DNA from: Patescibacteria group bacterium
Lineage (GTDB): Bacteria > Patescibacteriota > Patescibacteriia > PEXW01
Reading direction: 5' to 3'
NCBI GenBank assembly: GCA_038065235.1
Contig: JBBTRK010000006.1
Span: 3,255 to 67,254 of the forward strand
DNA: 64,000 bases
This document shows, piece by piece, positions 6,802 through 61,045 of the stretch. Positions within the stretch are counted from its first letter, which is position 1. Each line of letters begins with the position of its first letter. The notes under the pieces are model-generated. The model searched no databases. It had not been told where the DNA came from and was given only the letters and a program-made list of their open reading frames with translations. A program made the translations under genes and the position numbers.

Positions 6802-6897
6802 GTCATTCTGAGTCCCGCAGTAGCGGGACGAAGAATCTTGCCGGACTTTCCGGGTAGCAAGATCCTTCCCCCTCGATGGGCTCGGGGTCAGGATGAA
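6802..6897. repeat. Structured palindromic intergenic repeat, subfamily 1 copy A (GTCATTCTGAG...GAAGAATCTTGC...GCAAGATCC...TCAGGATGA); contains GTCCCGCAGTAGCGGGAC hairpin
   Basis: Seen directly: nested inverted repeats; same architecture at about 23567, 29017, 34012. Confidence 0.7.
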
Positions 6898-6913
6898 AAA
6901 TAAGAATGCACGC

Positions 6914-7195
6914 CTAGGAAAGTCGTGCATTTTGTAATTCAAGTCTTCGTTTTTCTGCAAAGAGCGCCATTTCAATCTCTAGGTAGCGTCGGTCATTATC
7001 TGGGCTCGAAAAGTATGTATAGATACTTTTAAATCCAAAATAATCCGCCATTGCTTGGGCATTTTCGAAGGCTTTGTCCCCCACGGCCCATTCCAGTAGT
7101 CTCGCAAGATCATCTGCATTTTTTGCACCTAGACTTTGGGCAATCTTATCAACAAACTCTTGTTGTTCTTCTGTAAGCCGTACTGCTTCACTCAT
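6914..7195 (-). CDS. Hypothetical small protein
   Basis: 93-aa ORF with good coding look (MSEAVRLTEEQQEFVDKIAQSLG...); no family recognised. Confidence 0.35.
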   Translation of the reverse strand: MSEAVRLTEEQQEFVDKIAQSLGAKNADDLARLLEWAVGDKAFENAQAMADYFGFKSIYTYFSSPDNDRRYLEIEMALFAEKRRLELQNARLS

Positions 7196-7231
7196 GCAAA
7201 CTCCTTTTTTGAGGTTCTAGATAATTATAAG

Positions 7232-9079
7232 TCATTTTTTTACCGCCCGTACAATCGCCCTGGCATCAATCCCTTCGTAGGCCAGGAGCTGTTCGGGTGT
7301 GCCGCTGCGGGGAATTTTGCGGACGGCGAGTGAGGTAACTTTTGCAAGATTCCCAACCACTTCTCGTACCGCGTCGGCAATGCCACCTTCAGCGACGTGG
7401 TCCTCGACGACGATAAGGTGCTTGGTCTGGCGAGCGGCCCGGAGCAACGTCACTCGGTCAATTGGCTTCACGCTGTATAGGTCAATGACACGGACGTTGA
7501 TCTTGCGCTTGAGTAGTTCGTTGTAGGCTTTTGCAGCTTCGTGGACCGTGATGCCAGCAGCGATAATCGTCGCCCGGTCTTTCCGGCTTTCGGCCAGAGT
7601 TTTGCTGCCGCCAATGGGGAAGGCCCCGGTATTCTTATAGAGCACAGGCAGCTTCTCCCGCGTCGTGCGGATGTACACGATGCCTTTAGCGCGGGCGGCT
7701 TGTTCCACTAACTTTTCTGTACTCACTGCATCACTTGGGTACAGTACGGTGCTATTGAACGTAGACCGGAACATGGCAATATCCTCCACGCCCATTTGTG
7801 AAGCGCCGTCGTGGCCAATGGAAGCGCCGGCGTGGGAACCGCACAGGACGAGGTGTGCATCGCTCAAGGCTGCCATGCGGATTTGATCATGTGCCCGCGT
7901 TAAGAAAGCGGCAAAGGTCGATGCGAACGGTGTCTTGCCGCGTCGGGTCATGCCCAGCGCCGTGCTCACCATGTTCTGCTCGGCAATGAACATTTCGTAG
8001 AAGCGCTTGGGCTGTGCTTTCGCAAAAACTTCGGTCATGGTGGAGTTGCTCGTCTCGGCATCTAGCACCACGAACTCGGGGTACGCTGGAGCAATATGCG
8101 CCAGCGCCGTGCCGTACGCTTCACGTGTGGCGACGAGTGCACCGCGCGTGTAGTGGAATGGTTTCGCGGGTTTCCGTTTCAAAACCTTTGGTAGTCGTCC
8201 ATGCGGTTTCGCTACAACACCATGGATGCGTTGCGCTTTGCCGAGTTCATCCAATGCCTGGGCGAGCTGCACCTTGGTGAGCGCCTTGCCGTGCCAGCCG
8301 TTCTTGTTCTCTAAAAATCTCACGCCTTTCCCCTTTACCGTTTTCGCGAGGATGATCGTGGGCTTGTTGCTCTTCGCGAGTGCACGACGGTAGACCTTCG
8401 CGATTGCGTCGAGGTTATGACCATCGACAGTAAACGTTCGCCAACCAAACGCGGCAAAGCGTTTGGCGTACACCTGCACGTTCCAGCCCAGCATGGTTTG
8501 TCCGCGCTGGCCGAGCCGGTTGATGTCGGCAATGGCAATGAGATTATTCAGTTTGTAGTGACTCGCGAGCTGCGCCGCTTCCCAGATTTGCCCTTCGGCC
8601 AGCTCGCTATCACCGAGTAGCACGAAGGTCCGGTACGGCAGTTTGTCCATCCTGGCGGCCAACGCCATGCCCAACCCAACCGAAAGGCCTTGGCCGAGCG
8701 AACCAGTGGCTGCTTCGGCGTATGGGAAAGATGAAGGAATCGGGTGGCCTTCGAGTTGGCTGCCGAACTTTCGCAAGGTGAGAAGCTCGCGTTCGGGAAT
8801 AATTCCGGCCGCGGCGTAGAGTGAATAGAGCAAGGGTGCGGCATGGCCTTTTGAAAAAATAATCCGGTCGTTGGTTGGGTTCTTTGGTTTCTTCAGGTCA
8901 GCGCGGAAGAAGCCACCGAAGAACAGCACTGCCATAAGGTCTGTAGCCGAGAGCGACGAGGTAGCGTGGCCAGAGCCGGCGGCCGTGGTCATCTGCAATA
9001 TCCAGCGGCGGATTGTGAGCGCGAGTGCGGTAACTTGTTTCTGCGTCATGGGTACAGTGTACCACTCCCATCCTGCCAT
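7232..9079 (-). CDS. tkt: Transketolase (single chain with TPP-binding and C-terminal domains; start possibly at Met-11, about 9049)
   Basis: 615 aa; GSGHATSSLSATDLMAVLFF..., GHPIPSSFPYAEAATGSLGQGLSVGLGMALA, ...GASIGHDGASQMGVEDIAMFRS are transketolase hallmarks. Confidence 0.85.
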   Translation of the reverse strand: MAGWEWYTVPMTQKQVTALALTIRRWILQMTTAAGSGHATSSLSATDLMAVLFFGGFFRADLKKPKNPTNDRIIFSKGHAAPLLYSLYAAAGIIPERELLTLRKFGSQLEGHPIPSSFPYAEAATGSLGQGLSVGLGMALAARMDKLPYRTFVLLGDSELAEGQIWEAAQLASHYKLNNLIAIADINRLGQRGQTMLGWNVQVYAKRFAAFGWRTFTVDGHNLDAIAKVYRRALAKSNKPTIILAKTVKGKGVRFLENKNGWHGKALTKVQLAQALDELGKAQRIHGVVAKPHGRLPKVLKRKPAKPFHYTRGALVATREAYGTALAHIAPAYPEFVVLDAETSNSTMTEVFAKAQPKRFYEMFIAEQNMVSTALGMTRRGKTPFASTFAAFLTRAHDQIRMAALSDAHLVLCGSHAGASIGHDGASQMGVEDIAMFRSTFNSTVLYPSDAVSTEKLVEQAARAKGIVYIRTTREKLPVLYKNTGAFPIGGSKTLAESRKDRATIIAAGITVHEAAKAYNELLKRKINVRVIDLYSVKPIDRVTLLRAARQTKHLIVVEDHVAEGGIADAVREVVGNLAKVTSLAVRKIPRSGTPEQLLAYEGIDARAIVRAVKK

Positions 9080-9119
9080 AGAGAAAACGCCGTCCGGGGT
9101 GGGGACGACGTTTTGAAGA

Positions 9120-9476
9120 TCAGGCTTTGGGTTTTGGGTGACCTTTAACGAGGAGCGTGTGCCCCAGGTGATAGCAGACGATGCCAGCGAGGCAAACGTA
9201 CCAGCCAGTGCCGAGGCCGAGGTGCGCGGAGTATGCGATGAGCGTTAGGCCAACGAATCCAGCCGACAACGTAATCGCGCCCTGCCAGGATACATACCAC
9301 GGTCTTGCCAAGCCGGCGACGAACGAGAGGATGGGTATCCAGATAATGCCCTGAGCTTTCGGGACGTTCGCTATCTCGACGAATACCAGCCACATGATGA
9401 TTACAATCGCTGAAACGCCAACGCCAATGCCGAAGAGGATCTGGTTCGCGCGTTCCTGCGCGGTTTGTTCAGTCAT
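9120..9476 (-). CDS. Hypothetical membrane protein (3-4 TM helices)
   Basis: 118-aa ORF, hydrophobic throughout (IVIIMWLVFVEIANVP..., LSFVAGLARPWYVSW). Confidence 0.4.
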   Translation of the reverse strand: MTEQTAQERANQILFGIGVGVSAIVIIMWLVFVEIANVPKAQGIIWIPILSFVAGLARPWYVSWQGAITLSAGFVGLTLIAYSAHLGLGTGWYVCLAGIVCYHLGHTLLVKGHPKPKA

Positions 9477-9576
9477 GACAACTCCTTTTGCAATGAGCTT
9501 TCTTCAATCTTCTGGCTATCCAATCATAGTTCGAGTGTTCCGTCAAGCCTAGAGCGAACCCTGGTATACTGCCCAC

Positions 9577-10173
9577 ATGCAGCTCATCTTCGCCACGCAC
9601 AATCCTGGTAAGGTCGTTGAAATGAAGCAAATTCTCCACGGCCTGCCGTTCGAAGTCATGAGTGCAGATGACGCTGGGGTCCATGAGGATGTGGTGGAAG
9701 ATGGGGTGACGTTCGAGGAGAACGCGCTGAAGAAGGCGCGGTTTGTGAGCCAGAGGACCGGCCAGTGGGCGGTAGCTGATGACTCGGGCATTTCTATTGA
9801 TGCGCTGGACGGCGCACCCGGCGTGTTTTCGGCACGGTGGGCGGGAGATGACGCGACCGGCGAGCAACTCGTGGCGTACACCCTGAAAGAGTTGGATGGT
9901 ATTCCCGAGCACCGGCGGAGCGCGTGGTTCGAATCCTCAGCTGCACTCGTCTCACCGGACGGGCAGGAGTGGGTGTTCACCGGCAAAGTGGAAGGCATGA
10001 TCCCCATGGCACCGCGCGGGACACCGCGGGAACGGTTGCCCTACGACGTCATCTTCATTCCCGAAGGTCACACGAAGACCTTTGCCGAGATGACGGATGA
10101 CGAGAAGAACAGCTTGAGCCATCGGGGAGAAGCGTTCCGCCAGCTCAAGGACTTTCTCGGCAACCTAGAGTAG
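9577..10173 (+). CDS. rdgB: Non-canonical purine NTP pyrophosphatase (RdgB/HAM1, dITP/XTP pyrophosphatase)
   Basis: 198 aa; LIFATHNPGKVVEMKQIL, FEENALKKARF, ADDSGISIDALDGAPGVFSARWAG, SHRGEAFRQL are Ham1-family motifs. Confidence 0.85.
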   Translation: MQLIFATHNPGKVVEMKQILHGLPFEVMSADDAGVHEDVVEDGVTFEENALKKARFVSQRTGQWAVADDSGISIDALDGAPGVFSARWAGDDATGEQLVAYTLKELDGIPEHRRSAWFESSAALVSPDGQEWVFTGKVEGMIPMAPRGTPRERLPYDVIFIPEGHTKTFAEMTDDEKNSLSHRGEAFRQLKDFLGNLE

Positions 10174-10176
10174 CGA

Positions 10177-11175: not shown

Positions 11176-11180
11176 CCTAT

Positions 11181-11993
11181 ATGCATAGCGTCATCGAAGC
11201 AATTGTACAGCGTCGAAATAAAAGTGTACCTGTTCAGGATGGCAAGAAAATTGGCCTGGTGCTGTACGGCGGGGTCATGGGCGGCATTCGGGGTGCCGGA
11301 GCGATGATTGCTTTGGAGGAAATGGGCTTGGCACATGCTTTCGACTGCATCTACACGAATTCTGCGGGATTTGCGAATGCGTCTTACCTTTTAGCTGGGG
11401 CAACACAGCTAGGGACTTCTATATACTACGAGGATCTCGCGAGTTGGAAGTTCATTAACCCTTTCCGGCTTTGGAAGATTGTGGATATTGACTTCCTAAT
11501 TTCCGTCATGCGGGAAGGTAAGCACTTACCAATTGAAAATATTCTTGCGTCTCACACAAAGCTGTTTGTTGCGCTACAGAATGTGCAAAAACATCAAGCC
11601 GAGTACCTTGAAGTGCATAGTGAGCCGAGTGAGCAGTACTTGGAACTCATGCGGGCTGCAACCTCAATACCATTTCTTCACCCTGGTACCGTGAATATTC
11701 ACGATAAGCCATACATGGACATACCGTTGCACCAGCCAGATTTGCACATTGATAAAGCTTTAGCCAATGGCTGCACCGAGGTTCTTGTAATAGCAAATTA
11801 CTCTAGTCAACTTCCTATAGGGCTCATAGCTGACCGACGAGTGTGTATCATTCAACCCGCACCGTCGTGGAAGCTTGCGCGTCTTGAGCGGCAGTCTACA
11901 AGACTACAGCTAGCATGTGTACAGATGGGGACGCTGGTGTTTCAATCATTTGGGGTTGAGAGAGAAATAACATTAGGGTATGCAAAGCTTTAA
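11181..11993 (+). CDS. Patatin-like phospholipase
   Basis: 270 aa; oxyanion-hole motif LVLYGGVMGGIRGAG and nucleophile-elbow-like YTNSAGF, consistent with patatin family (catalytic Ser-Asp dyad). Confidence 0.65.
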   Translation: MHSVIEAIVQRRNKSVPVQDGKKIGLVLYGGVMGGIRGAGAMIALEEMGLAHAFDCIYTNSAGFANASYLLAGATQLGTSIYYEDLASWKFINPFRLWKIVDIDFLISVMREGKHLPIENILASHTKLFVALQNVQKHQAEYLEVHSEPSEQYLELMRAATSIPFLHPGTVNIHDKPYMDIPLHQPDLHIDKALANGCTEVLVIANYSSQLPIGLIADRRVCIIQPAPSWKLARLERQSTRLQLACVQMGTLVFQSFGVEREITLGYAKL

Positions 11994-12303: not shown

Positions 12304-12310
12304 TATATTA

Positions 12311-12339: not shown

Positions 12340-12345
12340 GGTGAT

Positions 12346-22205: not shown

Positions 22206-23495
22206 TTACTTCTTCGGTTCGACCTTTTCCAGAATCCAGGCAATGGTCTTCCGGTTGGTGAGCACCATTTTCAAGTAATTCTTGTAGTCATCGGAGTCTA
22301 CTTGCTTCAGTAGCTCTGGGTTACTGCCCAAGCGGAGTTTTTCGGCGCTGATTTCACCTTCGACTTCTGCTGTGCTGGCGACCAGGTTATTTGCATCAGC
22401 CATGTGTCGCAGCAACAGTGCAACTTTCACGCGGTCTTCGGCGCGCTTCACGAATTCTTTCTTCAAGTCATCACGGGTCTTCTTGAGGGACGAGAGGTAG
22501 TCTTCAAACTTTCCGCCATCGTGCTTAATAGCATGCTGGAGTTCGTGGACCATTTTATCCTGCTCCGATTCGACCAGGATTGCAGGCACGTCATCGATCG
22601 TGCTCTTCTTCAGGAGTTCCTCCAGGATTGCCTGCTCGTAGCGCTGGCGTTCTCGGTCTGCAGACTCCTCGTGCAGGTTCTCCTTCACCTTCTCTCGTAG
22701 TTTCTCCATGCTCTCAAAGTTGCCTAGCTTCTTGGCAAAAGCGTCATCCAGATTGGGCATGCTGGTGTCGTACACCGTGCGGAGCTTCACCTTGAACTCT
22801 GCCTCCTTGCCCTGCAGGTCTTTCTTGCCGTACTCCTTGGGGAAGGTGAGCTTGAAAGTTTTCTCCTGATCAGCTTCCAGGCCAATGAGCTGCTCTTCAA
22901 AGCCCGGGATGAACATTTGTTCGCCAATGGTCATGGTCTGGTTCGTCCCCTTCCCATTCTCCAGCGGGACGTTGTTGAGCGCGACGTCGAAGTCCACATC
23001 CACGCGGTCACCGTGCTTCGCTGGGCGCTTGGCTGCTGCGTGCGAGGCGTGGGTTAGCTGCAGGCTTTTCAACGTTTTCTCAATTTGCTCGTTCGTCACT
23101 TCCACTGGTTTCCGTTCAATCTTGATCGAGCCAATGTCGCCGACCTTGATTTCTGGCAGCACCGGGACTTCGGCCGAGAACACAAATGGGTTTCCCTCGG
23201 CGAGTTTCTCCACGCTGATTTTCGGTTGCCCAATGGTCCGTAGCTTCTGTTCGACGACAGCCTTCGCGAAGGTGTCCTGCAAGGCGTGCTCGGCTGCGTG
23301 TTCCAGTATGCTCCCGAGGCCGACCTTCTTCTCAATCATTTCTCGCGGGGCCATGCCCGGGCGGAAGCCAGGAATCTTCGCACTCGCGGCGAGGTGCTGG
23401 ACTGCGCCGGTGATGTGCTTGGCAAATTCCTCTGCCGTGAGTTCCACAGTGAGTTTGACGAGGCCTTTGGATTGCTTGGTGGCGGTAACCTGCAT
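22206..23495 (-). CDS. tig: Trigger factor
   Basis: 429 aa; N-terminal ribosome-binding signature FRPGMAPREMIEKKVG, central PPIase-like and C-terminal arm domains. Confidence 0.9.
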   Translation of the reverse strand: MQVTATKQSKGLVKLTVELTAEEFAKHITGAVQHLAASAKIPGFRPGMAPREMIEKKVGLGSILEHAAEHALQDTFAKAVVEQKLRTIGQPKISVEKLAEGNPFVFSAEVPVLPEIKVGDIGSIKIERKPVEVTNEQIEKTLKSLQLTHASHAAAKRPAKHGDRVDVDFDVALNNVPLENGKGTNQTMTIGEQMFIPGFEEQLIGLEADQEKTFKLTFPKEYGKKDLQGKEAEFKVKLRTVYDTSMPNLDDAFAKKLGNFESMEKLREKVKENLHEESADRERQRYEQAILEELLKKSTIDDVPAILVESEQDKMVHELQHAIKHDGGKFEDYLSSLKKTRDDLKKEFVKRAEDRVKVALLLRHMADANNLVASTAEVEGEISAEKLRLGSNPELLKQVDSDDYKNYLKMVLTNRKTIAWILEKVEPKK

Positions 23496-23566
23496 AGCAA
23501 AAACGGCTAGGGTGAGAGGGTTAGGTTAGCCGAAAAGCTGGAGTCCGTAAAGGGTCACCCTCTCTT

Positions 23567-23655
23567 GTCATTCTGAGGCCGAGCTCACCGAGGCCGAAGA
23601 ATCTTGCTGCCTTATTAAAAGCGCGCAAGATCCTTCGCTGTTGCTCAGGATGACA
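23567..23655. repeat. Structured palindromic intergenic repeat, subfamily 1 copy B
   Basis: GTCATTCTGAGGCCGAGCTCACCGAGGCCGAAGAATCTTGC...GCAAGATCCTTCG...CTCAGGATGACA; reverse-complement orientation of copy D. Confidence 0.7.
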
Positions 23656-23747
23656 AATGAATATACAGCTATCTGTCCCAAACCCCCGGACTGCTAAAAA
23701 GAAGAAGCCCCGCAGTGGTGCAGGGCTTTAAAATGCAAGCAGACTAT

Positions 23748-29005: not shown

Positions 29006-29016
29006 ATTTATTTTAT

Positions 29017-29142
29017 GTCATTCTGACCCCGAGTAATCGAGGGGGAAGAATCTTGCCGCTATTTACCTTGCGCAAGATCCTCCCGCCTGCCTCGTCACTA
29101 CGAGTTCGGCGGGCAGGTCGGCCTGCTGGCCTCAGGATGACA
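29017..29142. repeat. Structured palindromic intergenic repeat, subfamily 1 copy C (longest copy)
   Basis: TGTCATTCTGACCCCGAG...GGGGAAGAATCTTGCCGC...GCGCAAGATCCTCCCGCC...GGCGGGCAGG...CTCAGGATGACA between hppA start and nusA end. Confidence 0.7.
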
Positions 29143-29163
29143 ATCGAATAGAGAAGAGTAAAA

Positions 29164-31624: not shown

Positions 31625-32437
31625 TTACCGTTGTGTTCGCTTCGCGCGCTTCTTCGCTCGAGGTGCTCTCTTCTTTATACTCTTCTTCAGCTTCTTTGTC
31701 TGGATGACGCGTTTCTTCGGTTTACCAGTTGCGACCCGCGTGCGTCCTCGTCGAGTGGGTTTTGCTTTACGGAACACCGTAGGTTTCTTCTTCTTATTTA
31801 TGAATTTTTTCGAAGCTTTTTGGGCTGCCGTTTGAACAGGTGCAAAACTCATCCTGTGTGCCAGTGTTGGGCCGTGCATGGCGAGGAGCTTGGCGTGCAA
31901 GGGCGTACCGTAACCCTTGTGCACGTGAAAGTGGAATTTGGGGTACAGCCGGTTGAGCTCCGAGCTCATGATTTGGTCGCGCACAACCTTGGCGATGATT
32001 GATGCGGCGCTGATGCTCCGCTCCAGCGCATCGCCGTCGATGATGTTCACGACCGGTGTTGCACCGAGGTCGATTTTGAACGCATCTACTAAGACCGCAT
32101 CGGGGGAGACGTGGAGCTTCTCCACAGCTTTCTTCAGTGCAGCAAGGTTCGCTTTGTGTACGCCGTCCTTATCGATTTCGGTAACGGGTACGACGTATGC
32201 TGTCCAGGCCAGAGCTTTCTTCGTAATCGAAACGAACGCCCGTTCGCGCTGCGTCGGGGTTAACATTTTCGAATCGTAGAGCTCGGTGGGAATATCCGTC
32301 TCGTCCAAAATTACCGCCGCGGTCACCAGCGGTCCTGCCCAGCTGCCTTTTCCTGCCTCATCCACTCCAGCAATCAGCCGATGTCCTGCTTTTCGCAATT
32401 TCGTTTCGTGGTGGTTGGTGGGGGCTGATTTTGGCAT
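31625..32437 (-). CDS. rnhB: Ribonuclease HII with about 60-aa Lys/Arg-rich C-terminal extension
   Basis: IAGVDEAGKGSWAGPLVTAAV (DEAGRG motif), KVVRDQIM, HKGYG...; tail KKKKPTVFRKAKPTRRGRTR...KKRAKRTQR. Confidence 0.85.
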   Translation of the reverse strand: MPKSAPTNHHETKLRKAGHRLIAGVDEAGKGSWAGPLVTAAVILDETDIPTELYDSKMLTPTQRERAFVSITKKALAWTAYVVPVTEIDKDGVHKANLAALKKAVEKLHVSPDAVLVDAFKIDLGATPVVNIIDGDALERSISAASIIAKVVRDQIMSSELNRLYPKFHFHVHKGYGTPLHAKLLAMHGPTLAHRMSFAPVQTAAQKASKKFINKKKKPTVFRKAKPTRRGRTRVATGKPKKRVIQTKKLKKSIKKRAPRAKKRAKRTQR

Positions 32438-32470
32438 GCAGCCAGTATACTCTATCCCTGTCTTTTTTAC

Positions 32471-32527
32471 ACAAAAATAAAAGGGCTCGAGGCCTGTATA
32501 TCATAGAGATTAAGAGGCTGAGCCCTT
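32471..32527 (-). terminator. Rho-independent terminator (8-bp GC-rich stem + T-tract) 35-40 nt upstream of rnhB start
   Basis: AAGGGCTC-loop-GAGCCCTT followed by TTTTATTTTT on minus strand. Confidence 0.5.
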
Positions 32528-32894
32528 AAATAGTTTAGTGAGTAGACGTGGGCCACCCGGTTCGCAACTCCTCAACGAGAGCAGTCGTCAACCGGGCAGC
32601 TCATGCCATGAACCTCGCTAAACTTTGCATTCATCGTTTTCCACATTTCTCGATGAATAGTGACTACCACTCTTGTGGTTATACCCCTTGCCCGAAAGCG
32701 TAAGAGTTAACCTTTTATGCTAGGGAATTTTTATATTCTCCTAGTTTTTCTTTTCAGTCAGCCGTGTGGACGGCTATGACGAGTAGTAGAACAGAAGCCC
32801 CACAACGTTTGGTAGTGCCAGCTGTCGTACTTCTCGTTTCCTTGGGTTTTCCAAGGGTAGTAGTCTGCGGATTCAAGGAGCGTTCTTAATTTCT
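32475..32894 (-). ncRNA. Orphan structured RNA candidate (about 420 nt), class unassigned, bounded by consensus promoter and intrinsic terminator
   Basis: Minus strand: TTGACA-17 nt-TATACT at about 32929-32901; terminator hairpin AAGGGCTC...GAGCCCTT + TTTTATTTTT at about 32527-32471; no ORF >=60 aa; multiple internal hairpins. RNase P P4 (GGAAAGUCCGG) and tmRNA tRNA-like-end motifs not found. Confidence 0.3.
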
Positions 32895-32900
32895 ATCAGG

Positions 32901-32929
32901 AGTATAGCACCATTTTGACCCCATGTCAA
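32901..32929 (-). promoter_or_regulatory. Sigma-70 consensus promoter TTGACA-17-TATACT driving the ncRNA candidate
   Basis: Exact -35 hexamer, 17-nt spacer, 5/6 -10. Confidence 0.5.
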
Positions 32930-32961
32930 CAATTTGGTGTGGCTAAGGTTAGCCAAAATGC

Positions 32962-33522
32962 CTACAGGCCTTTCTTCCAGGCTTGGAATTTGGCTTTTAC
33001 CTTCCGGACGACCGTCGGGATAGGGATACGGCTGGTGTTGAGGACGAAGTCGTACTGGTCTTTCTGCAGGAAGTCTACCCCGTAGAGTATGCGGTAGCGC
33101 TTCCGGTCAGAGCGCACGCGTTTCGCATGGAGGCGCATCACGGAAGCAATTGACTGCTGTTCTCCCAGTTCGCTCTGCCGTTCGCGGCGGTTCTGCAGCG
33201 TCCGCTTAGCACCGATGCGTGGGCTTACGGTGAGCAGGACTTTAAAAGAGCTCGGGAAGAAGTGCCAGGCGGTCCGGCTGCTGATGACGATGCGTGGTTG
33301 GTGGCTAACCGTTCGAACGAGCTGCTGGTCAAAGGCTTTGTCTCCAGCATTTGGGTGCGCCTCTGACCAGGCATTAAACTCGTGGAGCGACATGCCTTTC
33401 TGCTGCGCGGCCTTCCGGCGAAGCTGCCCGACGTCTATTGTCTTGTAACGCAGGAGCTTGGCCAAGCGGTCCGTGACTGTCGATTTTCCTGACCCCGGCG
33501 CGCCGTTGATGGTGATGATCAT
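32962..33522 (-). CDS. cmk: Cytidylate kinase-like P-loop kinase
   Basis: MIITINGAPGSGKSTV P-loop, 186 aa, archaeal/short-type CMP kinase architecture. Confidence 0.55.
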   Translation of the reverse strand: MIITINGAPGSGKSTVTDRLAKLLRYKTIDVGQLRRKAAQQKGMSLHEFNAWSEAHPNAGDKAFDQQLVRTVSHQPRIVISSRTAWHFFPSSFKVLLTVSPRIGAKRTLQNRRERQSELGEQQSIASVMRLHAKRVRSDRKRYRILYGVDFLQKDQYDFVLNTSRIPIPTVVRKVKAKFQAWKKGL

Positions 33523-33964: not shown

Positions 33965-33985
33965 GAGAAAAGGATAGCATGCCTT

Positions 33986-34101
33986 GTCAATGCGAGCCCG
34001 CCATATTTTTTGTCATCCTGAGCAACAGCGAAGGATCTTGCACGCTTTTGAAGAGTACGGCAAGATTCTTCGGCCTCGGTGAGCTCGGCCTCAGAATGAC
34101 A
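33986..34101. repeat. Compound repeat: subfamily-2 head fragment (TGTCAATGCGAGCCCG) + complete subfamily-1 copy D (34012-34101)
   Basis: GTCATCCTGAGCAACAGCGAAGGATCTTGC...GCAAGATTCTTCGGCCTCGGTGAGCTCGGCCTCAGAATGACA; reverse complement of copy B with transition (wobble-compatible) differences. Confidence 0.7.
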
Positions 34102-34142
34102 ATTGGAAAACCCAAGCGGCAGTGTAGCTGTGGAAAACTCGG

Positions 34143-34535: not shown

Positions 34536-34612
34536 TTCTTTTGGTGGTTAAGAAGAATTCAGCAATATATATTGTACGGCATGGAGCTGCAGGCGCAAGA
34601 GTTTTCCCCTCT

Positions 34613-34727
34613 GTCATTGCGAGCCCGAATCTTACGAGGGCGCGGCAATCCCGTTTTTTGGTGTGTAGCCACGAGCCCTCGCTCGTGGTTCAGATTAAAG
34701 CCCGCAGCGAGGGCTGCGGGCTACACG
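34613..34727. repeat. Structured intergenic repeat, subfamily 2 copy E (partial: head GTCATTGCGAGCCCG...GCGGCAATCCCG then divergent hairpins)
   Basis: Shares head with copies F, G, H; followed by CCACGAGCCCTCGCTCGTGG and GCCCGCAGCGAGGGCTGCGGGC hairpins. Confidence 0.6.
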
Positions 34728-38087: not shown

Positions 38088-38213
38088 AGCGTGATCCTTT
38101 CGCGGTGACCTAGCCACCCCGAGCAATGTCGAGGGGGAGCCGATGTCACCGTACCAGTGAATATTGAGACGCAGAGACTATAGCGGGATTGGCTAATGCT
38201 GTCAACCTTCATT

Positions 38214-38325
38214 GTCATTGCGAGCGACCGAAGGAAACGTGGCAATCCCGCTTACATTGGTACAAGTCACGAGTTCAGCGGGATTGCTTCGTCAGTGCCC
38301 ATGGGCACTTCCTCGCAATTGACAG
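38214..38325. repeat. Structured palindromic intergenic repeat, subfamily 2 copy F (plus a partial fragment at about 38183-38207)
   Basis: GTCATTGCGAGCGACCGAAGGAAACGTGGCAATCCCGC...GCGGGATTGCTTCGTCAGTGCCCATGGGCACTTCCTCGCAATTGACAG. Confidence 0.7.
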
Positions 38326-38378
38326 AGAAAGAAAAACCCCAGGCATTAAAATGTCTGGGGTCAAGAACGTGAGCAATT

Positions 38379-39860: not shown

Positions 39861-40080
39861 AGTGAATCCTTTCTCGTATGAGCGGTTTTAGTGTATTTGT
39901 TTTTGACTTCGTAGACTAGCGGAAAATATTGGTAATGTCAATGCTTGTCTTCCTGTCTGTCTTCCTGTCGTCCCTGGCAGTTCACTCGGGACCTTGCCGC
40001 AAGATGCCGGATCGGTGTCCGGCATGACAAAGGAAAGGTAATTCGCTTTTTTCCTAGTAGTGTCGTACAATATCCGCGCT

Positions 40081-41028
40081 ATGGCTGTACCTACTTTATC
40101 CAAGCTCCTCACCGAATTTCTGGAGTACTTGGAAATCGAGAAGAACGTCTCCCCGCTCACGGTGAAGAATTACGACTTCTACCTGCGCCGTTTCTTAACG
40201 TGGGGCAAGCTGCAGGACCCCAAGGACATTACCTCGGAGAAAGTTCGGCAGTACCGGCTCTACCTCAACCGTCTGGTCAATCCGCAGAAGGAGCTGCTCA
40301 AAGCGAGCACGCGCAACTACCACCTCATCGCCTTGCGCGCCTTCCTCAAGTATATGGCCAAGCGCGATGTAGTCTCGCTCTCGTCAGAGAAAGTTGAACT
40401 CGCCAAGCAGCAGGATCGGCAGGTGAGCTTCATGGAAGGTTCTGACCTCGAAAGATTCTTAGAGGCGCCGTTGAAAATTGAACAACAAAATATTGTGCAG
40501 ATTCGGGATAAGGCAATTCTGGAGCTCCTTTTCTCCACGGGTCTGCGCGTTTCAGAGTTGGCAGGACTAAAGAAGGATCAGATTAATATGGAGAAAGATG
40601 AATTCACCGTCCGCGGCAAGGGCGGCAAGCTGCGCGTCGTGTTCCTCAGCCATAACGCGCGGCACTGGGTTGCTGAGTACCTGAAGCAGCGCAGCGATGA
40701 CGAGGAGTGGATGTTCTTGCGTCACGACCGCGCCATGAAGCGCTCGGCCGAGAACTTCAAACCCATTACCCCGCGCTCTATCCAGCGCATCGTGCAGTTC
40801 TACGCCAAAGCCGCTGGCATCACCAAGCGCATCACGCCGCACACCTTGCGTCACAGCTATGCCACGGACTTGCTGATGAACGGCGCAGACATCCGCAGTG
40901 TGCAATCCATGCTCGGCCATGCGTCAATTACGACGACGCAAATTTACACGCACGTCACCAACCAGCAGCTGCGGGAAGTGTACAAGGCCTTTCACAATAG
41001 AAGAGGTAAAAAACAAAAGGACGATTGA
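40081..41028 (+). CDS. Tyrosine site-specific recombinase, XerC/XerD-like
   Basis: N-terminal SAM-like domain (MAVPTLSKLLTEFLEYLEIEKNVS), catalytic R...K...HxxR...Y: LSTGLRVSE, TPHTLRHSYATDLL, GHASITTTQIYTHV; tRNA-Arg 35 nt downstream. Track start 40060 (GTG) is an alternative. Confidence 0.8.
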   Translation: MAVPTLSKLLTEFLEYLEIEKNVSPLTVKNYDFYLRRFLTWGKLQDPKDITSEKVRQYRLYLNRLVNPQKELLKASTRNYHLIALRAFLKYMAKRDVVSLSSEKVELAKQQDRQVSFMEGSDLERFLEAPLKIEQQNIVQIRDKAILELLFSTGLRVSELAGLKKDQINMEKDEFTVRGKGGKLRVVFLSHNARHWVAEYLKQRSDDEEWMFLRHDRAMKRSAENFKPITPRSIQRIVQFYAKAAGITKRITPHTLRHSYATDLLMNGADIRSVQSMLGHASITTTQIYTHVTNQQLREVYKAFHNRRGKKQKDD

Positions 41029-41062: not shown

Positions 41063-41137
41063 GCCCTGGTAGTTCAACGGATAGAACAGTGGACTTCTAA
41101 GCCACGAATGGGGGTTCAATTCCCTCCCAGGGCACCA
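41063..41137 (+). tRNA. tRNA-Arg (anticodon TCT), CCA encoded
   Basis: GCCCTGG/CCAGGGC acceptor, anticodon loop CTTCTAA, T-arm GGGGGTTCAATTCCCTC. Confidence 0.8.
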
Positions 41138-42994: not shown

Positions 42995-43154
42995 TGGTGG
43001 GCAACGTAGGAGTCGAACCTACGACCTTCTCGGTGTAAACCCGCTTCGACTCGCGGAGCTCGCCGACGCGAGGCGAGCGAGACGCTCTGGCCTGGGTGCT
43101 CCCGATGGGTCGCACCCGTCCCGCAGTAGCGGGACCCAGCTGAGCTTCTCATAA
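42995..43154 (-). pseudogene. Disrupted tandem tRNA-Val(TAC)-like copy: intact T-arm/3' end and anticodon arm, but 38-nt and 49-nt insertions (anticodon-stem/loop junction and D-loop) and a non-pairing 5' acceptor strand
   Basis: Aligns to tRNA-Val 16 nt upstream (shares CTACGACCTTCTCGGTGTAAAC, GAGACGCTCT, AGCTGAGC); D-loop insert contains GTCCCGCAGTAGCGGGAC, identical to the hairpin in repeat A. Confidence 0.45.
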
Positions 43155-43161
43155 GACTGCC

Positions 43162-43238
43162 TGGTGGGCGGTGTAGGATTCGAACCTACGACCTTCTCGG
43201 TGTAAACGAGACGCTCTAACCAGCTGAGCTAACCGCCC
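43162..43238 (-). tRNA. tRNA-Val (anticodon TAC), CCA encoded
   Basis: GGGCGGTTAGCTCAGCTGGTTAGAGCGTCTCGTTTACACCGAGAAGGTCGTAGGTTCGAATCCTACACCGCCCACCA. Confidence 0.85.
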
Positions 43239-53055: not shown

Positions 53056-53104
53056 AGATTGGTTCGAAGAAAAGCGGCTCCGCGAGGAGCCGCTTTTTGT
53101 ATTT

Positions 53105-53196
53105 GTCACTGCGAATCCCTTAGCAGTGAGGTGAAGCAATCCCCCTGATACAACGGGATTGCCACGCCTCTCGATTACTCGAGGCCCGCAATGACA
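53105..53196. repeat. Structured palindromic intergenic repeat, subfamily 2 copy G
   Basis: GTCACTGCGAATCCCTTAGCAGTGAGGTGAAGCAATCCCCC...ACGGGATTGCCACGCC...CGCAATGACA. Confidence 0.65.
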
Positions 53197-53200
53197 ATAA

Positions 53201-56371: not shown

Positions 56372-58549
56372 ATGCTTCGGAGGAAAGGCACGACACTCAT
56401 CGAGACGCTCATCGGCATTGCCATCCTGGCATTCGTCATGACCTTTGCGTTCGCGATGTTCTCTTTGAGCACCGAGAAGCTCGCCCGCTCGAAATTTCGT
56501 GTACTGGCAACAGCACTGGCCACCGAGCAGGTAGAAATTATTCGGAATGTGCCGTTCGATCAGGTGGGGACTCAAGCGCCGACGTGCGAAGTAACCGGGC
56601 CTTTTTTGCGTACCAGTACCGTCACCCGTTCAAACGTCAACTTTACGGTTGACACCTGCGTGAAGTGGGTCGATGACCCGTTCGACAAGCTGGTAAGTGA
56701 TACGCCCTGGGATACCGTACCGACTGACTACAAGCTTGTAGAAATTTCGGTGAGCTGGCCCGGCGGTGATTCCCCGGTTAAGTTCACCACGACGGTGACG
56801 CCGAAGGGTTTGGAAGCGCCGTCAAACACGGGGTCGTTCCTAATCACCGTGTACGATGCGTCGGTGTTGCCTGTTCCCGAGGCAGATGTTACGGTCACGA
56901 ATACAATATTGGTGCCAGCCGTGAACATCGTTTCGAAAACCGATTTGCAAGGAAAATTGCAGCTTTTGGGTTTGGCGCCGGATGCGGGCAGCAACTATCA
57001 TATCGTCGTAACTAAGTCTGGCTACACCACGGATCAGACCGAGGCAGCGACTGCCCAGATACCCAACCCAGTTCTACAGGATTTCTCGTTATCCGCCGGG
57101 GGCATTGTGGACGTGGCTTTTAAAATTGACCGCGTGAGTAGTCTTGCTTTCACCACGGTCGGCGAAACATGTACGGCCATTCCGAGTGTTAATTTCAACC
57201 TCAAGGGGCAGAAATTAAAAGGGAACCCACCGCCAGACCCGGTGCTGAAGTACGATCAGAATTTTACGACCAGCAACCCCCTCGGCCAAGTAACCGCCAG
57301 TAACTTGGGGTGGGATCAGTACACATTGCTCTTGAGTGGCACGAGTAGGAACATCGCCGGCATTATTCCTCCAGCGAGCCTCAACGTGCTACCGAACACG
57401 AATCCACTTGTACAGCTGGTGCTGACGAGTAGCTACTCGGCTAACTCTCTTTTGGCGAGCGTGAAGGATACAAATACGAATCTGCCCGTGAGCGGTGCGA
57501 CGATTACTGTTACGGGTGTCGGCACCAAGGTCACTGGCCAAGGGGCTTGGTCGCAGACTGACTGGTCTGGCGGGATAGACCCAGCAGCGCTGTTCACCGA
57601 CGCGACGAAGACGAAGTTCGCTACCGAGGACGGGAACATCGATTGGCTTACCACACCGGGGCAAACAACGTTGCAGAAGGCCGCCTCAGCAGATACGGTA
57701 GTGGAGAGTTTTGACGCAACGACATATAAAGACCCCTCCATGACTGCGGTCTGGGATACTTCTGCCGGTGAAGTCCGCCTCCCGCAAACCAGCGGGCAGT
57801 ACGACGCGAGTGCAACCGGCCAGAGCCTGAAGCTACCTGTTGTTGCGGGGAAAATTGTTCGGGCTACGCTCACGGCAACGGATCAAACGAACGGCCAGAG
57901 TATCCAGTACTTCCTGGCCGCGGATGGCGTTACTTTCGAGGCGGTCACCCCCGGGGTCGCGTACGATTTCGTGGCAACCGGTGACGACCTACGGTTCAAA
58001 ATCCAGCTCGGGACGACTAATCCGGCCATGACGCCGACCGTTGCTAATATTTCTATAGCAGTAACCGTCGAAGCGTACGCCATTAGCGGTCATCTTACTT
58101 CCTCAACCTTCGATACGGGGACGGTTAGTAATTTTATTGATCTTACTTGGAATCCGCAGAGCCAGGGCGGGAATGTTGGGGCAGACCCCGTTCGTTTCCA
58201 GCTGGCGACGAATGATGACAACGCCACATGGAATTTTGTTGGATATGACGGCACTGCCGCTACGTACTTCACCACCAGCGGCACAACCGTGCCAGCCGCC
58301 CTCCAGGGCAAACGGTACGTGCGATACAAAATGTATTTACAAACGTCAGACCGAAAATTTACTCCAGGCGTCACGGATGTTAGTATCGGGTACACCACGG
58401 GCTGTACCCCGCCGGGACAAGCTTACTTCCCTGCCTTGAGTGTTCAGACGTACAGCGTCACCATTACGAAAGCAGGCTACATTGATTTGGTAGTTGACGT
58501 CGATGTCAACGGGAACCTGCAGAATACATTTAATCTCACGCCGAACTAA
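56372..58549 (+). CDS. Large (about 725 aa) pseudopilin-like protein with CarboxypepD_reg-like C-terminal domains
   Basis: N-terminus MLRRKG|TTLIETLIGIAILAFVMTFAFA (prepilin-like, Glu+5). Confidence 0.6.
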   Translation: MLRRKGTTLIETLIGIAILAFVMTFAFAMFSLSTEKLARSKFRVLATALATEQVEIIRNVPFDQVGTQAPTCEVTGPFLRTSTVTRSNVNFTVDTCVKWVDDPFDKLVSDTPWDTVPTDYKLVEISVSWPGGDSPVKFTTTVTPKGLEAPSNTGSFLITVYDASVLPVPEADVTVTNTILVPAVNIVSKTDLQGKLQLLGLAPDAGSNYHIVVTKSGYTTDQTEAATAQIPNPVLQDFSLSAGGIVDVAFKIDRVSSLAFTTVGETCTAIPSVNFNLKGQKLKGNPPPDPVLKYDQNFTTSNPLGQVTASNLGWDQYTLLLSGTSRNIAGIIPPASLNVLPNTNPLVQLVLTSSYSANSLLASVKDTNTNLPVSGATITVTGVGTKVTGQGAWSQTDWSGGIDPAALFTDATKTKFATEDGNIDWLTTPGQTTLQKAASADTVVESFDATTYKDPSMTAVWDTSAGEVRLPQTSGQYDASATGQSLKLPVVAGKIVRATLTATDQTNGQSIQYFLAADGVTFEAVTPGVAYDFVATGDDLRFKIQLGTTNPAMTPTVANISIAVTVEAYAISGHLTSSTFDTGTVSNFIDLTWNPQSQGGNVGADPVRFQLATNDDNATWNFVGYDGTAATYFTTSGTTVPAALQGKRYVRYKMYLQTSDRKFTPGVTDVSIGYTTGCTPPGQAYFPALSVQTYSVTITKAGYIDLVVDVDVNGNLQNTFNLTPN

Positions 58550-58579
58550 CGTATGCTAGGATCACGCCGAAAAAACATA

Positions 58580-59182
58580 ATGAAAAGTGCTGCGGGGTTC
58601 ACCCTCGTAGAATTACTTATAACCGCAAGCATCCTGGCCATAATTGGAACGTTGCTGGGCGTATTCGCTTCGGCGGGTATTCGCTCTTGGGGCCAGAATC
58701 GGGAGCAGGTAGAAGCGCAAGAGAGTGCTCGGGCAGCTTTGGCACGCATGACGAAAACAATCCGGAAAGCAGCCTCGGCGGATAATGGCGCGTATACCAT
58801 TTCGACCGCAGCAGCGCAGACATTGACCTTCTACGCCAACGTTGACAGCGATACGAACCGCGAGCAGGTGCGCTTCTTCCTGCAAGGGACAAATTTGAAG
58901 ATTGGTATCATCCAGCCTGTGGGTCAGCCTGCCACGTACCCCGCGGGGAATGAAGCCGTGAGTGTCCTGGCGGGCGGCATTCAGAATAGTGCGAACCCAA
59001 TTTTCCTCTACTACGATACCAATTACACTGGCACGCAAGCGGCACTCACCCAACCCGTGAACCTGCAGGATGTCCGTTTAGTACACATTACTTTGTCCAT
59101 TGATACTGACACTACGAAGCCCCCGACGGCAATCGATCTTCAGACCAGCACCTCATTCCGAAACTTGAAGAATAACCTGTAA
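58580..59182 (+). CDS. Prepilin-type pseudopilin
   Basis: MKSAAG|FTLVELLITASILAIIGTLLG. Confidence 0.7.
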   Translation: MKSAAGFTLVELLITASILAIIGTLLGVFASAGIRSWGQNREQVEAQESARAALARMTKTIRKAASADNGAYTISTAAAQTLTFYANVDSDTNREQVRFFLQGTNLKIGIIQPVGQPATYPAGNEAVSVLAGGIQNSANPIFLYYDTNYTGTQAALTQPVNLQDVRLVHITLSIDTDTTKPPTAIDLQTSTSFRNLKNNL

Positions 59183-59191
59183 GCTTTACGA

Positions 59192-60916
59192 ATGAGTATA
59201 CCAACCCGCCAACCCACAAACTCCCACCAACCAGTTCCCTATCCCAAAGGAACTATGCTTGTAAGTATTCTCGTCGTCACTGGCCTTTTTGTGACCCTAG
59301 GCATGCTCGCCCTACAGTTCGTCATCACGCAAAATGCCGCCAGCCGGTTCCGCGTGGATCGGGAGCGCGCCATCCAGATCGCCGAGGCCGGGGTGGACTA
59401 TTACCGTTGGCATTTGGCACATGTACCAGATGACTATCAGGATGGTACGGGTGCGGCGGGGCCGTATGTACACACTTATAAAGACGCGACCGGCAACACC
59501 CTGGGCACGTTCAGCCTGGAAATTACCCCGCCGCCTTCTGGTTCCACGGTGGTGACCATAAAATCCACCGGGCAAATCACTAATCGCCCAACGAGCAGTC
59601 GGACTGTTACGGTTCAACAAGGGATACCCTCATTCACCAAGTGGGCTGTAGTGGCGAATGCCGATATCCGCTTTGGCGTGGGCACCGAGGTGTTCGGGCC
59701 CATTCATTCTAACGGTGGTATTCGCTTCGACGGCCTGGCACACAACCTGGTCAGCTCGTACCGTTACAGCTACGACGACCCCGATCACACCGGCAGCAAT
59801 GAACTGGGCGTGCACACGCACGTTACACCCCTCGATGCCATTCCTCCGGTAACGCCACCCGCAACCATTGCGAGTCGGCCGGATGTTTTTGCGGTTGGGC
59901 GGCAGGTGCAGGCGAACTTCGTGGATTTCAATAGCATCAGCGTTGACATGCAGGCGATGAAAACAAAAGCCTCGGCCAACGGTATTTACGTTTTGCCCTC
60001 AGGCGGGCAGGGTTACCACATTACCTTCCGCCAGGATGGCAAGGTGGACATGCGCATCGTCAATACCCAGTTGCGTTGCCAGTACAGGTCTGGCGCACAA
60101 TGGCGTGACTATGGGTACTGCTCGAACAATTACAATTTGACCTGCACGCAGAACAGTAACTGCACCAGCGGCGCAACCTGCATCCAGTCCAGTCATTCCA
60201 TTGGCACCCGCGCGGCGGACCAGGCGGCCTTCACCTACCAGAGTGCCTCATCACTCGGCGTCCCAATCCCAGCGAATGGTCTCATATTCATTGAAGATGA
60301 CGCCTGGGTAGACGGCGTGGTGCCTAATGGTACGCGTCTTACCCTGGTGGCAGCCAAAGAACCGCTCGCGTCAGGTTTGGCGAATATTTACCTGGACAAA
60401 GATTTAACCTATGGCCGTTATTGTAACAATGCCACCCAGAATGCTTGTTCGCTCGATAGCGAATGTACCGGTGGGGCAACGTGCGTGGATGTATCAAATG
60501 GTACGTCAGCAGTGGGTCTTATAACCCAGCAAAACATCCTGGTTGGGTACTTCAGCGAGAATAACCTACGCCTAGATGCCGCACTCATCGCGCAGAACGG
60601 TCGGGTGGGTCGGCCTAATTTTGGTGCCAGCGGTTCCAGCTATCAACTCTACCCTACGGGTAGTCCGTTGCCGAACGGTGGAGGCGGCGAGAATAGTTGT
60701 GATGACTTTAGATCGCGAAGTCTTATTACCACTTTTGGCGCAATTGCCACCAATCAGCGCTACGGTTTTGCCTGGACTGGCGGCAGTTTTTGCAATAGCT
60801 CCAGTTCTGGCTACTGTGACCGCACCCTAAACTTTGATGCGAATCTCACGTACGCCCCGCCACCAGATTTTCCCACCACTGGGCAGTACGAAGCCTTGAG
60901 TTGGGAGGAGCAGTAG
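59192..60916 (+). CDS. Large pilus-associated protein (PilX/PilY-like candidate; N-terminal hydrophobic helix without Glu+5), Cys-rich C-terminal region
   Basis: KGTMLVSILVVTGLFVTLGMLALQFVITQ; multiple CxxxC-like motifs (CTQNSNCTSGATC, CSLDSECTGGATC). Confidence 0.5.
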   Translation: MSIPTRQPTNSHQPVPYPKGTMLVSILVVTGLFVTLGMLALQFVITQNAASRFRVDRERAIQIAEAGVDYYRWHLAHVPDDYQDGTGAAGPYVHTYKDATGNTLGTFSLEITPPPSGSTVVTIKSTGQITNRPTSSRTVTVQQGIPSFTKWAVVANADIRFGVGTEVFGPIHSNGGIRFDGLAHNLVSSYRYSYDDPDHTGSNELGVHTHVTPLDAIPPVTPPATIASRPDVFAVGRQVQANFVDFNSISVDMQAMKTKASANGIYVLPSGGQGYHITFRQDGKVDMRIVNTQLRCQYRSGAQWRDYGYCSNNYNLTCTQNSNCTSGATCIQSSHSIGTRAADQAAFTYQSASSLGVPIPANGLIFIEDDAWVDGVVPNGTRLTLVAAKEPLASGLANIYLDKDLTYGRYCNNATQNACSLDSECTGGATCVDVSNGTSAVGLITQQNILVGYFSENNLRLDAALIAQNGRVGRPNFGASGSSYQLYPTGSPLPNGGGGENSCDDFRSRSLITTFGAIATNQRYGFAWTGGSFCNSSSSGYCDRTLNFDANLTYAPPPDFPTTGQYEALSWEEQ

Positions 60917-60932
60917 GGGGTTCCACTTGATT

Positions 60933-61045
60933 GTCATTGCGAGCCCGAGCCCTGCGAGGGTGCGGCAATCCCGTTTGGACAAAGCGCAGTTCCATTTAAA
61001 CGAGATTGCTTCGTCGTCCGCACCAGTGGGACGTGGCATTGACAG
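60933..61045. repeat. Structured palindromic intergenic repeat, subfamily 2 copy H
   Basis: GTCATTGCGAGCCCGAGCCCTGCGAGGGTGCGGCAATCCCG...CGAGATTGCTTCGTCGTCCGCACCAGTGGGACGTGGCATTGACAG. Confidence 0.7.

Follow-up and report, generated by a model that had tools for sequence, protein, structure and literature searches.

Palindromic repeats between the genes of a patescibacterium: a probable G·A-containing, nested variant of the CGTC-tagged REP superfamily

Repetitive extragenic palindromic (REP) sequences tagged with CGTC form a bacterial superfamily (Di Nocera, De Gregorio & Rocco 2013, BMC Genomics 14:522; PMC3733652), which the prose of that paper presents as plain hairpins—perfect stems of 8-9 bp with loops of 4-5 nt—in which the tag CGTC, often TGTC (CCTC being allowed), stands before a stem that starts with AT and a short tail near CCA follows. 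According to the same text, these REPs are mostly head-to-head dimers, often heterodimers and rarely tail-to-tail, and have no dedicated transposase; they are intergenic and often downstream of genes, occur in distant phyla and in reduced genomes, vary 50-fold in copy number with a patchy distribution, and include families located inside other palindromes. Members named there are dRS3 of Neisseria and RPE-4 and RPE-6 of Rickettsia, and Wolbachia also carries such repeats (PMC3733652). In this report we focused on a 64,000-nt stretch of a Patescibacteria group bacterium (GenBank assembly GCA_038065235.1, contig JBBTRK010000006.1, positions 3,255 to 67,254; hereafter the window) and analyzed a family of structured palindromic repeats with TGTCATT...AATGACA termini, of which copies A to H and a ninth, divergent copy are listed in Table 1. 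We consider it likely that they are REP-type DNA repeats of the (C/T)GTC-tagged superfamily, with a unit of 30-50 nt as the evolutionary module.

The nested multi-hairpin of about 100 nt described in an earlier, sequence-only reading of the window is composite: full elements do fold strongly, but the building block is the 30-50 nt unit. Each unit comprises, in order, an unpaired YGTC tag, a 5-bp foot (ATTCT/AGAAT, ATCCT/AGGAT, or ATTGC/GCAAT), GA, an inner sequence, GA again (GAA in the GC type), the foot complement, and C, TGTCATTCTGAGGCCGAGCTCACCGAGGCCGAAGAATC being an example. Tandem G·A mismatches are usual, in Y-GA-R context on each side, and the tail is short and C rich. The foot has only five Watson-Crick pairs. 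The inner sequence, whose first base is G and whose last is C in 152 of 181 distinct cases, is usually a hairpin of otherwise free sequence, 6 to more than 45 nt in size and sometimes nested, the commonest inner cores in the wider family being GCGAAGC, GCGCAGC, and GCGTAGC. On their own, window units fold into a foot, a 2x2 GA/GA internal loop, and an inner stem, and full elements (~90-125 nt) are two such units placed head to head with the tags outside, mostly as heterodimers. The same module recurs elsewhere. A scan of viral contigs with the pattern GTCATTSYGAG-N(8-38)-GAAGMAWYY returned at least 120 loci, and in the viral matches listed the recurrent object is the 30-50 nt module, often solo and sometimes in an inverted pair. 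Across ~1.4 Mb of collected loci there are 308 units, 151 of them solo, and adjacent pairs have their tags outside in 52 cases, inside in 3, and in tandem in 32, this last class including nested detections. In the window itself, GTCATTSYGAG with at most one mismatch occurs 14 times against 4.3 expected, a count reached in 0 of 100 shuffles. A structural scan allowing two tag mismatches found about as many matches as in shuffled sequence (22 against a shuffle mean of 14.6), and the limit for that scan was set at one.

Pairing within units, as opposed to between them, is another line of evidence. We compared 33 CT-type dimers, chosen by their outer tags alone and in part from one genome, at the single stem position that varies. 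Here the two sides pair in every left unit (33/33) and in every right unit (33/33), whereas the outer and central stems on which the sequence-only reading had relied are complementary there in only 10/33. The dimers combine T/A with C/G in 23 cases, T/A with T/A in 10, and C/G with C/G in none. An alignment of 22 sequences gives the same picture, the intra-unit pair being CG in 12 and UA in 10 and never unpaired, and the two inter-unit pairs being UG (12) or UA (10) and AU (10) or A·C (12). The differences between copies had been taken as transitions that preserve G-U pairing; they are instead compensatory within units, and between units they leave one wobble and one A·C on either strand. The transitions that had been noted mark two unit types, each of which is internally Watson-Crick. 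As a separate observation, dimers of two ATCCT/AGGAT units were absent from this sample (0/33).

Comparison with relatives shows that the copies come and go. The window contig recurs in a Hainich groundwater metagenome (ENA ERZ1292622); the closest NusA homologues, at 75-95% identity, are named Patescibacteria group or Parcubacteria, and those at ~60% Kerfeldbacteria. Because of this naming, and because one relative lies on a 1.08-Mb contig, we take the organism to be a small-genome bacterium of the candidate phyla radiation (CPR). Four relatives keep the gene order, with NusA identities to the window of 95% (L155), 86% (L150), 84% (L151), and 78% (L153), and the polymorphism that the sequence-only reading had proposed to look for in related genomes is found at B, C, D, and F. 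The nusA-hppA spacer is 201 nt long with copy C in the window, and 24-57 nt long and empty in all four relatives. The site of copy F upstream of rpsO is empty in L155, and that of copy B upstream of tig is empty in L151 and L153. Downstream of speD, where the window has copy D and a GC-type remnant, L150 has a terminator-like hairpin only, the loop of which corresponds to the position of D; in L155 the site is occupied by a GC-type dimer whose right end is orthologous to the remnant. No target-site duplication was found in the alignment of filled and empty sites at C, nor by eye at B, D, and F. As had been claimed, copy D is the reverse complement of copy B, with identities of 89% over a 56-nt arm and 98% over a 41-nt arm; this near identity, together with empty sites in the relative whose NusA is 95% identical, shows recent gain. 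In Logan, five short-read contigs stop inside copy B, 99 nt upstream of tig, as is expected if the genome has the sequence in more than one place. At other loci, the relatives have copies of their own, and the inner-hairpin subtype GACCTGCCCGCC..GGCAGGCGGGAG, which is in the right unit of copy C in the window, is at a different locus in L153. Upstream of speD, the single unit E of the window has an orthologous element in L155 and L150, and its tag-side boundary, between CTCGCAATGACAG and AGGGGAAAACTCTTGC on the gene strand, is common to the full dimers of these two relatives. This shared boundary, beside a conserved promoter-like sequence, makes E an old, orthologous insertion. At the same site, the inner hairpins are unrelated between the window and L155/L150 despite well-conserved flanks.

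These findings suggest how the repeats might behave. As DNA, the units would be selfish or neutral and would lack autonomy; by analogy with the Y1/HUH enzymes of REP/RAYT systems and with IS200/IS605, they would fold into single-stranded DNA hairpins and be copied or moved in that state by an enzyme acting in trans. They would come to rest in intergenic niches that tolerate them, at times in the loops of hairpins already there, and would affect transcripts, if at all, only secondarily. Propagation as a single-stranded hairpin is in keeping with the apparent entry of D into a hairpin loop and with the location of some published REP families inside other palindromes (PMC3733652). Among the proteins tested from the window, none matched Y1_Tnp, the RAYT domain. 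A 148-aa open reading frame (ORF) bracketed by two units in L151, considered as a REPtron-like gene, is a predicted membrane protein.

A more specific version of this scheme is that the G·A units are a distinct, uncatalogued class of REP-like replicator, modular single-stranded DNA hairpins with a tag and foot that a widely distributed enzyme would recognize, exchangeable inner-hairpin cassettes, cross-phylum (possibly phage) travel, recent gain in a genome of ~1 Mb, and a preference for entry into loops. The cassette idea comes from the presence of the copy A hairpin in a tRNA-like pseudogene (described below) and from the unrelated inner hairpins of the orthologous units in the window and L155, and the loop-entry idea from the position of D at the loop of a terminator hairpin. 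We regard this version as tentative and, taken as a whole, rather doubtful.

Several observations weigh against reading the repeats as mobile REP-type DNA. The enzyme that would mobilize them was found neither among the window proteins nor among 203 nearest-neighbor ORFs elsewhere. Nearest-neighbor energy models give several isolated units weak stability (z -0.2 to -2) and, for a strand with both units, favor the inter-unit fold. The covariation concerns one variable stem position only, and the pattern may reflect two unit lineages instead of repeated compensation. The stem and loop dimensions differ from those of CGTC REPs, except in the right unit of the ninth copy with its 8-bp stem. The unit at the E site has stayed at one position in three relatives, a possible sign of function. 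One group of related viral contigs has single units with a ribosome-binding site and ATG 20-35 nt downstream of them (for example, L009 7062-7093, L011, L048, L064, L107, and L120), and capsid families are the commonest among 150 nearest ORFs (Phage_capsid 6, GP7 3, SU10_MCP 3, counts that may overlap and reach at most 12/150). The position before start codons and the capsid neighbors hint that phage units may be used at the RNA level.

This last point bears on another explanation, in line with the argument of the sequence-only reading for selection on RNA secondary structure, namely that the repeats are structured modules selected at the RNA level, whether as stabilizers in 3' untranslated regions, attenuators or terminators, or small RNAs. 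Copies A, C, and G do lie inside probable transcripts, 4-21 nt past stop codons, on both strands the folds of full elements are much stronger than those of shuffles (z -4 to -7), tandem G·A with closing G-C pairs is also a good RNA motif, and REPs elsewhere are reported in one source to stabilize mRNA (PMC6006769). However, the two strands of each full element fold about equally well, and solo units between co-directional genes have the same ("GA") orientation in 19 cases and the opposite one in 23 in the ~1.4 Mb of loci, as counted with crude ORF calls. Copies B, E, and F each have a terminator-like hairpin upstream and a promoter-like site downstream, in spacers that are probably untranscribed. 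As for termination, no T-run (U-tract) follows any copy, separate terminator-like hairpins stand beside A, B, E, F, and G, and because separate intrinsic terminators adjoin A, E, F, and G the elements there are not the terminators themselves. Searches with Rfam (release 15), at the gathering threshold and more loosely, returned only tRNAs from the window, even at E <= 5, and no match at E <= 1 on canonical dimers from other organisms. Add to this that the supposed G-U pattern is really compensation within units plus an A·C mismatch, and that sites are empty in close relatives, and neither the terminator role nor selection on RNA structure is borne out. We found no sign that the repeats are RNA genes, and their distribution fits tolerated insertion in any non-coding niche better than a specific RNA role, so that an explanation at the RNA level seems to us unlikely, even though copies inside transcripts (A, C, and G) may have a secondary effect there.

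Three further explanations treat the repeats as DNA. The sequence-only reading had offered "REP/MITE-like mobile hairpins", and its REP half agrees with the tag, foot, pairing, intergenic location, and gain and loss described here and, less clearly, with the tail. Its other half would make them MITEs (miniature transposable elements with inverted repeats), that is, derivatives that arose by deletion from an insertion sequence of the DDE type and that cut-and-paste transposition moves via the terminal inverted repeats (TIRs) TGTCAT...ATGACA. Inverted termini, a length of 90-125 bp, intergenic location, presence/absence polymorphism, and a fragmentary rve-type insertion sequence in L153 all suit MITEs, yet the missing target-site duplication does not, nor do the solo units (151/308), which a TIR-dependent transposon does not predict. 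Moreover, each "TIR" is itself a hairpin with internal compensation, and no transposase with matching ends was found, which makes this origin very improbable. Domesticated binding sites for a nucleoid protein, topoisomerase, or site-specific recombinase, serving chromosome organization, could account for a tag and foot (GTCATT...AATC) conserved across phyla far beyond the needs of a hairpin, and for the orthologous copy kept at the E site; REPs elsewhere are also reported to bind gyrase, integration host factor, and DNA polymerase I (PMC6006769). This is hard to reconcile with copies whose presence differs between relatives with 95% identical NusA, with the patchy, 50-fold variation in copy number reported for CGTC REPs (PMC3733652), and with elements in phage contigs, and no candidate protein was identified, so we hold it to be very improbable. 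Integron-type attC sites, or other hairpin recombination sites marking gene cassettes, likewise are imperfect palindromes with strand-distinguishing mismatches, variable centers, and probable single-strand folding. Here, however, the termini are TGTCAT...ATGACA and RYYYAAC/GTTRRRY core sites are absent, the flanks are syntenic housekeeping genes and not cassettes, and there is no integron integrase nearby, the sole tyrosine recombinase (40060-41028) being Xer-like; this explanation is contradicted and scarcely credible.

The REP-type units extend well beyond the window. The architecture of subfamily 1 (copies A-D), including the ATTCT + ATCCT heterodimer, is found in metagenome-assembled genomes (MAGs) of Planctomycetota, Terriglobales, Bacillota, Caldilineaceae, Ignavibacteriae (12 loci in one MAG), Elusimicrobiaceae, Thiotrichaceae, Thermoanaerobaculia, and Balneola, and the spread of the unit architecture includes Acidobacteriota, Chloroflexota, Elusimicrobia, and Gammaproteobacteria. 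Canonical GC-type dimers are on replicons of Novosphingobium (at least 40 places on one), Methylosinus, Methylocystis, Methylobacterium, Aulosira, and Legionella, the carriers including alphaproteobacterial, cyanobacterial, and Legionella plasmids, and Helicobacter canis prophages contain single units. Canonical GC-type units end in AAT-CCA(G) or AAT-CTC; in window units, AAT-CTT or AAT-CCC runs on into the central stem. Two arrangements stand apart. In the Ignavibacteriae MAG CAISDA01 (L129-L149), the twelve dimers are bracketed by a second conserved inverted sequence, AAGAATCTTCATGCATATGACATCAGCACTCT, making a longer composite palindromic element, and the viral contig L061 has a tandem array of four 33-nt units, GTCGTCATTGCGAGCCTGCGAAGCAATCTG, at 2694-2818.

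Within the window, inspection of the sequence located all eight loci that had been claimed. To these a ninth, divergent copy and a remnant are added, and one of the eight, E, proves to be a half-element. The four arms quoted for subfamily 1 are all common to copies A, B, C, and D, the right terminus of A being degenerate (TCAGGATGAAAA), whereas subfamily 2 (E-H) exists in a looser form, with G inverted, the outer stem of H decayed, and E reduced to one unit. A covariance model, another proposal of the sequence-only reading, was trained on subfamily-1 dimers and scores A-D, themselves in the training set, at 49-73 bits (A 59.8, B 70.7, C 52.8, and D 72.9). Run in the window, it recovered F, H, E, and G at their exact coordinates, but weakly (8.7-13.8 bits), and brought up the ninth copy (match 39967-40028, 13.5 bits, E 0.17). 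The right unit of this copy is a plain hairpin of the classical CGTC-REP type, with a perfect 8-bp stem and a 6-nt loop, and its fold has z = -2.3 against shuffles. Immediately upstream, at 39940-39970, there is a short direct repeat of TGTCTTCC / TGTC motifs. The partner unit of E is replaced by an unrelated, near-perfect palindrome of 63 nt (34663-34727; GTGTAGCC...GGCTACAC), of which no second copy was found in the window. There is also a second class of GC-type unit, with G(T/C)G in place of the 3' GAA (GTGGCAATCC or GCGGCAATCC), which comprises E, the left units of F and H, and the right unit of G, and which in the window lineage is always partnered with a GAAGCAAT unit. Two other structural readings of the units were rejected. 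On inspection, CUGA...GAAG resembles a hammerhead without the CUGANGA core or the three-stem junction, and it has no Rfam match; the G·A pairs lack the 3-nt bulge on their 5' side that a kink-turn would have.

Table 1. Copies, units, and remnant of the repeat family in the 64-kb window.
Feature	Coordinates	Strand	Description
Copy A	6801-6897	+	Head-to-head pair, ATTCT/AGAAT unit + ATCCT/AGGAT unit
Copy A, left unit (ATTCT/AGAAT)	6801-6838		Inner hairpin TCCCGC-AGTA-GCGGGA
Copy A, right unit (ATCCT/AGGAT)	6862-6897	-	Tag degenerate
Copy B	23566-23656	+	Head-to-head heterodimer: ATTCT unit 23566-23603, ATCCT unit 23630-23656 (minus)
Copy C	29016-29143	+	Heterodimer; nested hairpin CCTGCC..GGCAGG in right unit; nusA-hppA spacer
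Remnant terminus	33985-34002	+	GC-type unit, TGTCAATGCGAGCCCGCC; adjoins copy D
Copy D	34011-34102	-	Reverse complement of B, downstream of speD
Copy E	34612-34658	+	Lone GC-type unit
Copy F	38213-38326	+	GC-type heterodimer: G-T-G-GCAAT unit + GAA-GCAAT unit
Ninth copy	39966-40030	unassigned	Compact, divergent; TGTC-GTCCC..GGGAC-CTTGC-CG-GCAAG-ATGCCGGA-TCGGTG-TCCGGCAT-GACA
Copy G	53104-53197	-	GC-type heterodimer
Copy H	60932-61046	+	GC-type dimer, right unit degraded; weak fold, z = -1.3

All nine copies are intergenic, in agreement with the sequence-only reading and with genes defined by Pfam, an arrangement with a chance probability of ~4e-9 given ~12% non-coding DNA. The window is ~88% coding, and the flanking genes are housekeeping ones, among them a SpoU-family methylase gene, tig, hppA, nusA, speD, pnp, and rpsO. 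The adjacency to stop codons that had been pointed out also holds, A lying 11 nt past the stop of the spoU-like gene, C 21 nt past that of nusA, and G 4 nt past that of the giant protein, a 1032-aa CarboxypepD_reg repeat protein; H is 16 nt past the stop of a 574-aa protein. Copy A is followed by a terminator-like hairpin at 6909-6935, B lies between a terminator-like hairpin (23728-23705, minus strand) and the start of tig at 23495, and G has a bidirectional terminator-like hairpin (53075-53100) on one side and the stop of the 1032-aa protein on the other. Copy E is 15 nt upstream of the -35-like box of speD. Copy F fits exactly between the terminator-like hairpin of the upstream gene, with its T-run, and the promoter-like site of rpsO (TTGACA-17-TATAGT, 38205-38177 on the minus strand), which it directly adjoins.

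Other features of the window and of the collected loci deserve mention in their own right. Beside tRNA-Val (43162-43238), a tRNA-Val-like duplicate occupies 42995-43160 on the minus strand; its 3' half is 91% identical to the intact neighbor, it has insertions of ~45 nt, by eye in the D-arm and anticodon-stem regions, and neither ARAGORN nor Rfam calls it. Within it, GTCCCGCAGTAGCGGGAC (43118-43135) is the inner hairpin of copy A, matched at 18/18 positions (blastn-short E 7e-5), which suggests that inner hairpins may be portable. A gene-free gap of 525 nt (32437-32962), between a cytidylate-kinase-like gene and an RNase HII gene, contains TTGACA-17-TATACT (32929-32901, minus strand), a strong promoter-like site, and has no Rfam match; a gap of similar size is kept in L155 (6076-6587), and the one in the window may contain a small gene or an RNA that is not annotated. 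The XerC/D-like tyrosine recombinase gene at 40060-41028 is directly upstream of tRNA-Arg(TCT) (41063-41137), and its product may be either an Xer with a housekeeping role or an integrase located at a tRNA attachment site. Finally, the whalefall-1 RNA motif has two sub-threshold matches (29 and 26 bits; gathering score 37) at 5907-5959 and 3657-3709 of L032, a viral contig that also carries a unit, away from these matches.

The family is thus ordinary in kind, REP-like selfish or neutral DNA and no new RNA class. Its interest lies in the G·A-containing, nested variant, in recent gain and loss in a CPR genome, and in belonging to a superfamily without a known mobilizing enzyme. Genomes of Patescibacteria are, to our knowledge, streamlined and generally repeat-poor, and in a full-text search the literature hardly pairs "candidate phyla radiation" with "repetitive extragenic palindromic". 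CGTC-class REPs are among the few abundant bacterial repeat families for which no mobilizing enzyme is known, and recent gain in a small CPR genome offers a tractable background for seeking one by gene-repeat co-occurrence. In practical terms, the repeats break short-read assemblies of such genomes and are a likely source of spurious small ORF calls.

How, then, do these elements compare with known systems? With GTAG REPs and their BIME and REPIN arrangements they share imperfect palindromes, an unpaired 5' tetranucleotide, occurrence as singlets and inverted doublets, high copy number, intergenic location without target duplication, and presumed single-stranded DNA hairpins. They differ in their tag (YGTC here, GT[AG]G there), in being conserved across phyla where GTAG REPs are species specific, and in having no RAYT (TnpA-REP, Y1 HUH) gene beside any copy examined. 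Correia-type bacterial MITEs are similar in length (~100 bp), inverted ends, intergenic location, and strain-variable presence, and different in that no target-site duplication was seen here, the halves are independent, and each half is a hairpin. As for the DNA structure, d(GCGNAGC) is an extra-stable minihairpin, and tandem sheared G·A motifs occur in Y-GA-R context; such tandem mismatches and GNA triloops stabilize DNA hairpins. The inner cores of the family (GCGAAGC, GCGTAGC, and GCGCAGC) and its mismatches in C-GA-G / C-GA-A contexts match these motifs, although d(GCGNAGC) is a structural motif and no genetic element, its presence here being read from sequence. Ten element k-mers sought in literature text retrieved only primers and unrelated matches.

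The closest likeness is to the CGTC-tagged REPs, for which the comparison with CGTC-1 to CGTC-4 draws on the prose and the back-translated REP-encoded peptides of the published account (PMC3733652). Every window unit has TGTC or CGTC before the foot, as do most units elsewhere, and the stem starts with A-T, alignment columns 4-5/42-43 being AU/UA in 21-22 of 22 sequences. Pairs have their tags outside far more often than inside (52 against 3), heterodimers make up 23/33 CT-type dimers, and no transposase flanks the repeats in the window or among the 203 neighboring ORFs. As for the tail, canonical GC-type units have CCA(G) or CTC and window units CTT or CCC, where the published consensus is CCA. 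The REP-encoded peptides in the tables of that account include none of the G·A type and back-translate, with codon choices that are not unique, to plain hairpins such as GTCATTCCCGCGAAAGCGGGAATC and GTCATTGCCGGGCTTGACCCGGCAATCCA, and Patescibacteria are not among the five phyla it gives for CGTC repeats (PMC3733652). For Sulfurovum, the CGTC-2 peptide RHSELVSGS can be back-translated to CGTCATTCTGAGCTTGTCTCAGGATC, which would carry the 11-mer of the subfamily-1 terminus, and the terminus GTCATTCTGAG is compatible with the back-translated 5' arm of that repeat, back-translation not being unique in either case. We therefore file the elements of this patescibacterium as a structural variant, G·A-containing and nested, within the CGTC-tagged REP superfamily.

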